The notes under the pieces: model-generated | Seen by the model: the letters and a program-made list of their open reading frames with translations, nothing else | Databases searched by the model: none | What the model was told of the DNA's origin: nothing | Shown: in pieces, positions 58,992-59,624 of the stretch | Position numbering within the stretch: the stretch's first letter is position 1 | Layout: each line of letters starts with the position of its first letter | Assembly (NCBI GenBank): GCA_964654205.1 | Contig: CAZZHR010000001.1 | Span: forward strand, 65,953 to 129,952 | Length of the DNA stretch: 64,000 nucleotides | Reading direction: 5' to 3' | From: an uncultured Candidatus Saccharibacteria bacterium | Lineage (GTDB): Bacteria > Patescibacteriota > Minisyncoccia > Phycocordibacterales > UBA2100 | Program-made: the position numbers and the translations under genes

Positions 58992-59025
58992 GTACCGATT
59001 CATATCTATAGGATATAATCGGTAC
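58992..59025. promoter_or_regulatory. Operator-like inverted repeat GTACCGATT-16 nt-AATCGGTAC embedding a perfect TATAAT (59014..59019), 7 nt before the PaaX-like start codon
   Basis: Read directly. The arms match the 32090..32109 site. The -10 position implies a leaderless transcript. Confidence 0.55.
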
Positions 59026-59589
59026 ATGGGAATCCAGGAGAAAGAGTCAAAGCGGCGTGCGAAAAAGTACGAATTGCAGCGGCTGATACTCCAGTCAGTC
59101 AAGGCGGCGGGATTACTTTCGGTTGCGCTGGTGGCCCCAAATGTGGTGGGTGCCATGGCCAAGCTAGGACTCATTCGCTCACCTAGGCAACAAGATGTCA
59201 TAGGTCGCAGTTCTGCGCGCTTGGTACGATCAGGACTTTTGGAGTGGAACGCGGGCAAGCTGCGGCTCACCGCTAAAGGTGAGCGCAAGTTGCGAGAGTT
59301 GTCCTTGCGTGAACAAATTGCAAAGCGGCCACGGAGATGGGATGGTAAGTGGCGTGTCCTGGTATTCGACATCCCGGAGCGGCGAAAGGCAATCCGCATC
59401 AAGTTGCGAGTTACACTCAACGGCATCGGGTTTTACCGCCTGCAAGACAGTGTTTGGGTGTACCCTTTTGACTGCGAGGACTTCGTCCAGCTCCTAAAGG
59501 CAGGTTTCCGGGTCGGAGACGATGTGCGGTACATGATAGTGGACTCAATCGAGCGTGACGAGCGTATGAGAGCTCACTTCAAAGTGTGA
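59026..59589 (+). CDS. PaaX-family-like putative transcriptional regulator, paralog 2
   Basis: 'WDGKWRVLVFDIPERRKAIRIKLRVTLNGIGFYRLQDSVWVYPFDCED' closely parallels 18614..19162 and the E. coli PaaX 'WDGKW' region. The N-terminus is wHTH-like. Confidence 0.55.
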   Translation: MGIQEKESKRRAKKYELQRLILQSVKAAGLLSVALVAPNVVGAMAKLGLIRSPRQQDVIGRSSARLVRSGLLEWNAGKLRLTAKGERKLRELSLREQIAKRPRRWDGKWRVLVFDIPERRKAIRIKLRVTLNGIGFYRLQDSVWVYPFDCEDFVQLLKAGFRVGDDVRYMIVDSIERDERMRAHFKV

Positions 59590-59590
59590 C

Positions 59591-59624
59591 GTACCAATCT
59601 ATATCTATAGATTGAGATTGGTAC
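59591..59624. promoter_or_regulatory. Inverted repeat GTACCAATCT-14 nt-AGATTGGTAC with central ATCTATAGAT palindrome, immediately after the PaaX-like stop
   Basis: Read directly. It may be an operator and/or a terminator hairpin. Confidence 0.5.

Follow-up and report, generated by a model that had tools for sequence, protein, structure and literature searches.

The 64,000-nt stretch of an uncultured Candidatus Saccharibacteria genome that was analysed here (contig CAZZHR010000001.1, positions 65,953 to 129,952; hereafter the window) carries, at 59026–59589 on the plus strand, a gene for a 187-residue protein that joins a winged helix to a Cas2-like domain. The neighbours of this gene, which we refer to as the regulator gene, are MetAP, LOG and PurD, and no paa catabolic genes adjoin it. 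A 34-bp palindrome stands on either side. The upstream palindrome, at 58992–59025, has the form GTACCGATT-N16-AATCGGTAC around the core ATCTATAG and ends 1 base before the regulator ATG (59026), spanning roughly −34 to −1 of the start codon. The downstream palindrome, at 59591–59624, begins 1 nt past the stop codon, has the form GTACCAATCT-N14-AGATTGGTAC around the same core, and pairs at 15 of 17 positions. Together they form a 40-nt direct repeat of 75% identity, 599 bp apart (58990 and 59589), with the common centre ATATCTATAG. A compact perfect palindrome of 20 bp at 32090–32109 (GTACCGATA-CC-TATCGGTAC) is a candidate extra site. An initial annotation of the window had reported these three sites and attributed them to an autoregulated repressor; all three are present exactly where it placed them.

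The half-site motif is strongly over-represented in the window. GTACCRAT occurs 8 times against 2.3 expected, a count never reached in shuffles, and the paired motif GTACCRAT-N(0-30)-ATYGGTAC occurs 3 times against 0.00 expected, with zero matches in any shuffle. Chance as the origin of the sites is thus ruled out by the window shuffles. The GC content that it had put at ~60% measures 56.8% in the window. A generic abundance of long palindromes is likewise ruled out, as only eight in the window have at least 13 of 17 positions paired, and most of the remaining strong ones resemble terminators with a GC stem and a T-run or fall within genes. Further sites of the same type as those at the regulator gene, allowing up to 3 mismatches, number 29 in the window against ~18 in shuffles, which is background, and none is full-length. 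Each half of the 34-bp palindromes also resembles the 20-bp compact site with 3 mismatches, an internal pseudo-dyad that is not above background. No Rfam family matches within the window.

The regulator product matches Pfam PF20803 (PaaX_M, 'PaaX central Cas2-like domain') with 71.5 bits over a cutoff of 24, and no other Pfam model. In an AlphaFold2 (AF2) model of the monomer (predicted local distance difference test (pLDDT) 70.7; predicted template modelling score (pTM) 0.50), a winged helix with its recognition helix at about residues 53–68 and a wing hairpin at 72–81 is followed by a linker helix (83–100) and then by a Cas2-like ferredoxin fold (105–187). The winged helix of the model aligns with those of PaaX and DtxR/IdeR. 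Foldseek ranked Rv0674 (3kfw) first, E. coli PaaX (8a39) second and Cas2 structures after them, and a profile search matched the regulator to 3kfw with E = 0.001. No Pfam N-terminal PaaX match was obtained at E ≤ 0.01, and neither Pfam nor the model yielded a PaaX_C domain, the chain stopping at residue 187 directly after the Cas2-like domain. Against TIGR02277 (PaaX equivalog), the regulator scores 25.3 bits and its paralogue in the window (paralogue 1, described below) 31.2 bits, both short of the cutoff of 264.55. Against TIGR01573 (cas2), the same proteins score 24.4 and 27.6 around a cutoff of 24.5, over an alignment of only ~40–50 residues, and PADLOC Cas2 models match as well.

Relatives of the regulator are numerous. 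A protein search returned 842 homologues, of which nearly all belong to Kaiserbacteria, Zambryskibacteria, Taylorbacteria, Paceibacterota and other Patescibacteria; this marks the source organism as Kaiserbacteria-like, within the candidate phyla radiation. Among species-representative genomes, the number of confirmed matching loci is at least 584, with several paralogues per genome. The motifs FDIPE and QDSVW are invariant in the family. Public records mostly name the relatives 'CRISPR-associated endonuclease Cas2' or 'hypothetical protein'. Many of them carry the Cas2 label because their ~40-residue Cas2-like core scores at the TIGR01573 cutoff, and this naming looks like a systematic mis-annotation in Patescibacteria genomes. 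We place the regulator in a previously undescribed branch of the PaaX superfamily, found across the Parcubacteria, that is without the ligand-binding C-terminal domain.

The bracketing of the gene by two palindromes is conserved across this family. From the species-representative genomes, 80 homologous loci of Parcubacteria were taken, and the 79 with an intact gene were analysed. With at least 12 of 17 positions required to pair, a palindrome of ~34 nt was found upstream of the gene in 63/79 loci; in 45 of these 63 the distance from its centre to the ATG is exactly 17 nt, which places the end of the 34-nt site at the start codon, just as at the regulator gene. A copy past the stop codon was found in 62/79 loci, its centre 10–121 nt beyond the stop, and at least 49 loci have both copies. 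Palindromes of this kind are concentrated at the genes themselves: across the 587 kb of these loci, 104 of 166 strong palindromes fall within the ~3% of sequence that adjoins a PaaX-like gene, and 86 of 91 palindromes with the family signature lie next to one. The folded consensus half-site reads cATACACTAAttttAyGCTA. Its outer conserved positions are −18 to −11, and its core is near-invariant, with C at −3 in 121/124 half-sites, usually as GCTATAGC or GCGGTCGC, and with the conserved pattern GC-N4-GC.

The two flanking copies evolve in concert, and each gene has arms of its own. When the arms of upstream and downstream copies are compared, identity is 0.74 for copies of one locus and 0.45 for copies from different loci. 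The downstream copy of the same locus is the best match to the upstream copy in 23 of 49 loci and ranks among the top three in 35 of them; paralogues within one genome have different arms. The downstream copy is on average the more perfect of the two (14% mismatched pairs, compared with 20% upstream), and the centres of the two copies lie 588–703 bp apart across the family. A centre of 4 nt that is not self-complementary (GGTC/GACC) is flipped between the copies in loci L006, L010, L013, L014 and L022 and unflipped in L008, L009 and L011; because the centre is flipped in some loci and not in others, the central 2 bp seem to carry no orientation information.

The closest relatives (L001–L004 and L007) have the same context as the window gene, SecY-(Gmk)-Adk-MetAP-(LOG)-cassette-...-VirB4-like, and this syntenic position is held in at least six genomes. 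The cassette, by which we mean the gene with its two palindromes, is not mobile and is vertically inherited, as its orthologues are syntenic. A phage origin was ruled out, none of the relatives having been found on viral contigs.

The upstream palindrome also contains the promoter. A perfect −10 box, TATAAT, lies at 59014–59019 (+) inside its right half, separated from the ATG by 6 nt (CGGTAC) rather than by the 7 nt that the initial annotation had counted, and no Shine-Dalgarno motif stands at a usable distance before the ATG. Given these 6 nt and the missing Shine-Dalgarno motif, the layout is that of a leaderless gene. The right halves of the upstream copies in the family are enriched for TATAAT (T in 49/63 at +6, A in 55/63 at +7 and T in 51/63 at +11), compared with 51–73% at the same positions in the mirrored left half and 52–73% in the downstream copies. 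A TAnnnT box 5–8 nt ahead of the start codon is found at many further genes of the window, where Shine-Dalgarno motifs are rare (examples are the genes at 15379, 16895, 22606, 24400, 32198, 59667 and 61188). This pattern suggests that leaderless transcription is widespread in the source genome. One such gene is purD (ATG at 59667), whose extended −10 box TGATACAAT ends 7 nt before the ATG.

Residues of the protein covary with bases of the palindromes. Mutual information with average product correction (APC) was computed over 76 non-identical loci. In the top pairs, bases −17 to −14 are linked with residues 57, 58, 61, 63 and 74, all within the predicted recognition helix or wing, and the core bases −4 and −5 with residue 125, located on helix 1 of the Cas2-like domain. 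Residue 125 sits in a basic stretch, ERRKAIRIKLR, that holds the invariant R124 and R128. Of the 37 cases with R61, 35 have C at −14, and cases with S, A or T at this residue mostly have T; where residue 58 is Y or F, base −15 is G in 10 of 11. For residue 125 and base −4, the base is mostly G where the residue is D, E or N, mostly C where it is Q, K, A or R, mostly T where it is I, L or V, and A where it is H or Y. In 38 phylogenetically independent sister pairs (Fisher test), the association reaches p = 3e-5 for 61/−14 and p = 1e-4 for 125/−4, and residues 61 and 125 each rank first of all 187 for their own DNA position. Permutation inside divergence quartiles gives family-wise p values of ~0.005 (61/−14) and ~0.045 (125/−4). 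Within the orthologous lineage, residue 125 and base −4 have changed jointly: I with T in the window, L001 and L003, L with C in L002, D with G in L004 and K with C in L007.

These observations as a whole are best explained by an autorepressor whose own gene lies between two operators, a reading to which we give a probability of about three in four. Because the copies evolve in concert and the residues covary with the bases, the palindromes probably belong to the protein encoded between them. As judged by sequence comparison, the autoregulated repressor of the initial annotation is strongly supported by the family-wide bracket, the concerted copies, the covariation and the position of the upstream copy over the whole promoter. 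Actual binding, the direction of regulation, looping or a roadblock, and any regulon are what we infer from these patterns. The regulator would bind, probably as a symmetric dimer, its own private palindrome of ~34 bp, the recognition helix reading the outer arm at bases −17 to −14 and the helix-1 residue of the Cas2-like domain appearing to read the core bases −4 and −5. This core readout is suggested by the covariation only. As the upstream copy extends over the −35 position, the TATAAT box and the start, bound protein would have to exclude RNA polymerase, resulting in negative autoregulation.

The downstream copy would be a high-affinity auxiliary operator within the same self-contained unit. 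Its greater perfection fits such a site, as the upstream copy must satisfy the promoter as well. It might cooperate with the promoter copy, either by looping the ~600-bp gene or through local concentration, form an insulating roadblock, or do both. A role as operator of the next gene was rejected, the neighbours being convergent in 31 cases and co-directional in 27, at scattered distances, and the copy would thus belong to the regulator's own unit. The arrangement includes both the pair of cognate operators that brackets a controlled unit in systems of the lambda CI and LacI type and, by its apparent design, the widely spaced half-sites over the own promoter that mark a PaaX-type operator (9-nt arms, 16 or 14 nt apart).

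Several points weigh against this autorepressor reading or against parts of it. The structural model of the regulator is only moderately confident and does not fix the orientation of the domains, and the leaderless transcript, with its start at the start codon, is presumed from geometry alone. Covariation at 58/−15 and 57/−17 is not significant after the divergence-stratified family-wise correction. The downstream copy could serve in looping, as a roadblock or in both ways, and helical phasing of the 588–703 bp distances gave no signal, a test that is weakly informative at such length and so neither supports nor excludes looping. Sites outside the cassettes, which could point to a physiological output of the family, are also few. 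A more far-reaching version of the autorepressor reading holds that both domains read DNA, the winged helix the outer arms and helix 1 of the Cas2-like domain the central GC-N4-GC core, with the Cas2-fold dimer at the centre of the palindrome, that the bound copies pair into a ~600-bp loop, and that the family, a large set of co-evolving private-operator circuits, is the main specific transcription-factor repertoire of Parcubacteria. The same version would make this a Cas2 fold outside CRISPR that recognizes palindromes of repeat length; as a joint claim, we regard it as rather unlikely.

Three other explanations of the cassette were considered, each of which we hold to be improbable. The palindromes might be RNA hairpins (terminators, stabilizers or insulators that close the unit on both sides) and have nothing to do with the encoded protein. 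All sites can indeed fold into stable hairpins (−17 kcal/mol at the cassette sites, with z about −3.7 to −3.9), the upstream copy stands past the stop codon of LOG, the gene before it, and T-runs stand behind some orphan palindromes of the family type (L038, L043 and L045). However, a canonical terminator was rejected for the downstream copy, as a T-rich tail follows only 6 of 62 such copies and their mismatches have no sense-strand G·U bias (37 G.T versus 35 A.C). A terminator scan returned nothing at 59591–59624, and ordinary terminators elsewhere in the genome have a GC stem and a T-run. A terminator role would also leave unexplained that the copies match within a cassette yet differ between paralogues, that the upstream copy is locked at 17 nt from the ATG with the −10 box inside it, and that residues covary with bases. 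We consider this explanation quite improbable.

A mobile or selfish cassette, with the palindromes as its ends or recombination sites (in the manner of REP/RAYT elements or integron attC) and the remote site as a dispersed copy, is a shade less credible still. It would account for a gene flanked by a private pair of repeats, for the several paralogues per genome that each have their own repeat, and for the occasional orphan copies elsewhere, and Cas2-fold proteins can be nucleases. Against it stand the conserved SecY-Adk-MetAP ... VirB4-like position of the orthologues, the lack of relatives on viral contigs, and a cassette in which no transposase or recombinase domain was found; dispersal is slight, the 64 kb containing 3 sites, and neither a target-site duplication nor an empty site was seen. 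The least probable of the three, and one to which we give hardly any weight, is that the gene encodes a genuine CRISPR Cas2 or a nuclease toxin of the Cas2/VapD type, flanked by degenerate CRISPR-like repeats. The window contains no CRISPR array, and the adjoining LOG and PurD genes are not cas genes, although no cas1-directed search of the window was made. Scores near the TIGR01573 cutoff, the PADLOC matches, Cas2 structures among the fold matches, the invariant FDIPE and QDSVW motifs, and repeats of ~34 nt, near the length of CRISPR repeats, speak for it. The Cas2 match, however, covers ~40 residues of a 187-residue protein that also contains a winged helix, PaaX-type proteins lead the matches by both sequence and fold, and the 'spacer' between the repeats is the gene itself in a conserved layout.

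The third site of the window, at 32090–32109, stands just upstream of an AAAGGAG ribosome-binding site and 16 nt ahead of the ATG at 32073, where a gene on the minus strand (31849–32073) begins. This gene encodes a secreted peptide of 74 residues with a signal peptide and six cysteines. The resemblance of the site to the cassette arms is beyond chance: 16 specified bases match them, and on the minus strand the site shares the ATG-proximal 11-mer ATCGGTACATG with the upstream copy. Its arms of 9 nt each stand 2 nt apart, compared with 14–16 nt at the cassette sites, and it is without their interior and core. The remote target in a YcaO/Cys-rich locus that the initial annotation had proposed is not established, given these closely set arms, the absence of the core and the separation of the peptide gene from the YcaO operon by an opposite-strand orphan gene.

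We think it possible, although somewhat doubtful, that this compact palindrome, GTACCGAT, is a functional target of the regulator. The bases −17 to −14, which the recognition helix would read, are intact in both halves, no shuffle produced a match, and compact inner dyads (9+4+9) exist at the flanking sites of paralogue 1, so that short dyads do occur in the family. Several findings weigh on the other side. The geometry, otherwise rigid in the family, is collapsed at this site, and the core that residue 125 tracks is missing. An arm search of 72 related loci found no compact site there, the extra sites in those loci being mostly full-length (34 nt). No TAnnnT box was found within 45 nt upstream of the peptide ribosome-binding site, and for this reason the palindrome is probably transcribed, within the 5′ untranslated region (5′ UTR) of the peptide mRNA. 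The balance tips modestly towards the site not being an operator of this protein and being instead a relic (a collapsed full-length copy), a site of another factor or paralogue whose gene lies outside the window, or a 5′-UTR hairpin. The site does fold as an RNA hairpin, and its perfect 9 + 9 arms argue against an old relic.

The surroundings of this site offered little for comparison. In a word-indexed search for orthologues of the peptide, only the gene itself was found, and a metagenome scan yielded no confirmed one; a representative library contains six distant homologues, which share C-T-x2-C-G-G-x2-G-G-C ... C-x-N-x-C-M-G ... C-P and with which the peptide forms a small family of secreted proteins. 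Neither tblastn nor blastn found a pseudogene remnant beside the site. A leadered gene such as the peptide gene is unusual in the window; a canonical terminator follows it at ~31790–31815, where no second site is present. A second small open reading frame with a signal peptide, at 31487–31699 (−), lies downstream and shares the CATGAAAGGAG ribosome-binding context. In the divergent intergenic region there are inverted repeats TGCACATGAC/GTCATGTCCA at 32128–32147 and TATGCCATGCAC/GTACATGGCATA at 32121–32132 and 32176–32187, the latter overlapping the TAGAAT −10 box of a leaderless 405-residue gene; these repeats at 32121–32187 may be sites for other factors. The 405-residue product (32198–33415, +) is Cys-rich and has no Pfam domain, and among 5.8 billion clustered proteins it has no homologue but itself. 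Beyond it, 33421–36604 (−) encodes a YcaO protein (SagD/TOMM-type cyclodehydratase, 177.8 bits against TIGR03604) and then a multi-pass membrane protein of 513 residues without a family assignment. No obvious same-strand precursor peptide adjoins this operon, and the signal peptide of the Cys-rich product argues against its being a YcaO-modified precursor of a ribosomally synthesized and post-translationally modified peptide (RiPP).

Paralogue 1, at 18614–19162 on the minus strand, encodes a protein of 182 residues with the same two domains (PaaX_M, 71.3 bits) that is 28% identical to the regulator. Its own palindromes bracket the gene: one past the stop codon at 18583–18604 (CTGATGTCC-TATC-GGACATCAG) and an imperfect one upstream at 19165–19220, with 27-nt arms that are 74% complementary. 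The upstream palindrome contains an inner dyad, ATGTCCG-AG-CGGACA, at 19185–19199 (ATGTCCGAGCGGACA), which coincides in part with the −35 region of the promoter on the minus strand; in that promoter, 6 nt lie between TATACT (19174–19169) and the ATG at 19162. As the initial annotation had noted, the GTACCRAT motif is absent around this gene. The repeats CTATACTGC (19123–19131) and GCAGTATAG (19167–19175), which it had described as flanking paralogue 1, instead lie on either side of the start codon, and GCAGTATAG holds the TATACT −10 box. The sites of paralogue 1 lie within 27-nt direct repeats at 18574–18600 and 19173–19199. These are 599 bp apart, exactly as at the regulator gene, despite gene lengths of 549 and 564 nt; as spacings in the family range from 588 to 703 bp, the identity is probably a coincidence. 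Relatives of paralogue 1 from metagenomes (L081–L089) have the same bracket, with palindromes of 38–44 nt and a GCGGCCGC-type core, and the rule therefore holds across distant subfamilies.

Palindromes of the family type also occur away from PaaX-like genes, and the family probably has small regulons as well. Full-length intergenic orphans lie in L016 (3738–3771), L019 (centre ~6905), L056 (149–182), L077 (6095–6136), L080 (2001–2034) and L038 (centre ~8063), the one in L016 ~60 nt upstream of a patatin-like gene. Those of L020 (centre ~3805) and L043 (1005–1038) stand a few hundred nucleotides upstream of a PaaX-like gene. T-runs follow some of the orphan palindromes (L038, L043 and L045). 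In L045, a RelB/RelE-like toxin-antitoxin gene pair (7542–7814 and 7824–8081) is bracketed by palindrome copies at 7380–7415 and 8092–8128. These have the form CCC(T/C)AT(T/C)TCAGCTATAGCTGAGAT(A/G)GG, with arms unlike those of the PaaX-like cassette in the same locus, and the pair may be a bracketed regulon member of another paralogue.

Among known systems, PaaX is the nearest. PaaX of E. coli binds the widely spaced inverted repeats TGATTC-N27-GAATCA and represses its own Px promoter by steric hindrance, excluding RNA polymerase (PMC9493321). The likeness to the phenylacetyl-CoA-responsive PaaX proteins of E. coli and Pseudomonas (8a39; related structures 3kfw and 3l09) extends to the order of the domains, a winged helix followed by a Cas2-like middle domain (PF20803), and to repression of the own promoter through a spaced inverted-repeat operator, which for the window protein is predicted only. 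Unlike PaaX, the window protein has no C-terminal ligand domain and no paa genes nearby. Its operator would be a continuous palindrome of ~34 bp with a GC-N4-GC core, present once on each side of the gene and combined with a leaderless promoter, and its family has expanded so that a small genome has several paralogues, each of them with an operator of its own.

With CRISPR Cas2, the protein shares the ferredoxin-like fold, the β1 'DI' and 'Q-SVW/F' motifs and the borderline cas2-model scores. In Cas1-Cas2, the Cas2 dimer sits on the middle of a DNA duplex. The window protein differs in its fusion to a winged helix and in its surroundings, the window having no CRISPR array and the adjoining genes not being cas genes (again, no search for cas1 was made). 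Its Cas2-like domain also appears to give a base-specific readout, as the covariation of residue 125 with base −4 suggests; to our knowledge, such readout is not known for Cas2.

Bracketing itself has precedents. The cI gene of lambda lies between OR and OL, and LacI, GalR and DeoR have auxiliary looping operators. The cassette resembles these systems in that a repressor unit lies between cognate operator sets, several hundred base pairs to kilobases apart there, and in its private specificities, which recall immunity types. It differs in comprising a single gene with one site on each side at a syntenic chromosomal place, without a phage context, and its looping is hypothetical. As in REP/RAYT elements, palindromic repeats specific to the family member stand as a pair around the gene, whereas the HUH/Y1 transposase fold is missing, dispersal is almost nil, the place is syntenic and one of the repeats is the promoter. 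Type II antitoxins are also small ligand-less DNA binders that repress their own promoters through palindromes, and L045 contains a bracketed RelB/RelE-like pair; the window cassette, by contrast, is a single gene with no evident toxin partner or toxin activity.

Autorepression of the PaaX type and widely spaced half-sites are already known. In the searchable literature we found no paper that combines PaaX with Patescibacteria, Cas2 or Cas2-like, and none that combines Parcubacteria, leaderless and promoter. Not described in the papers found are the two-domain branch without a ligand domain, its expansion in Parcubacteria and the operator-gene-operator bracket, as well as the fusion of an operator with a leaderless promoter, the private co-evolving specificities and the apparent base readout by a Cas2 fold. 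The autoregulation part is solid and moderately surprising; the Cas2-fold readout and the mechanism of the bracket would interest specialists if confirmed.

Bacteria of the candidate phyla radiation are uncultivated and ultra-small, with few transcription factors, and their gene regulation is barely known. For these organisms, the results give a model of an operator, a model of a leaderless promoter whose −10 box lies within that operator, and residues 61, 58, 57 and 125 as candidate determinants of specificity. The pairing of residues with bases amounts to a small recognition code, by which regulons could be predicted for hundreds of genomes assembled from metagenomes. Should the Cas2-like domain indeed read DNA, this would bear on the role that the Cas2 fold had before CRISPR or has apart from it. 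The design, bracketed and free of a ligand, is also a compact autoregulatory module of natural origin.

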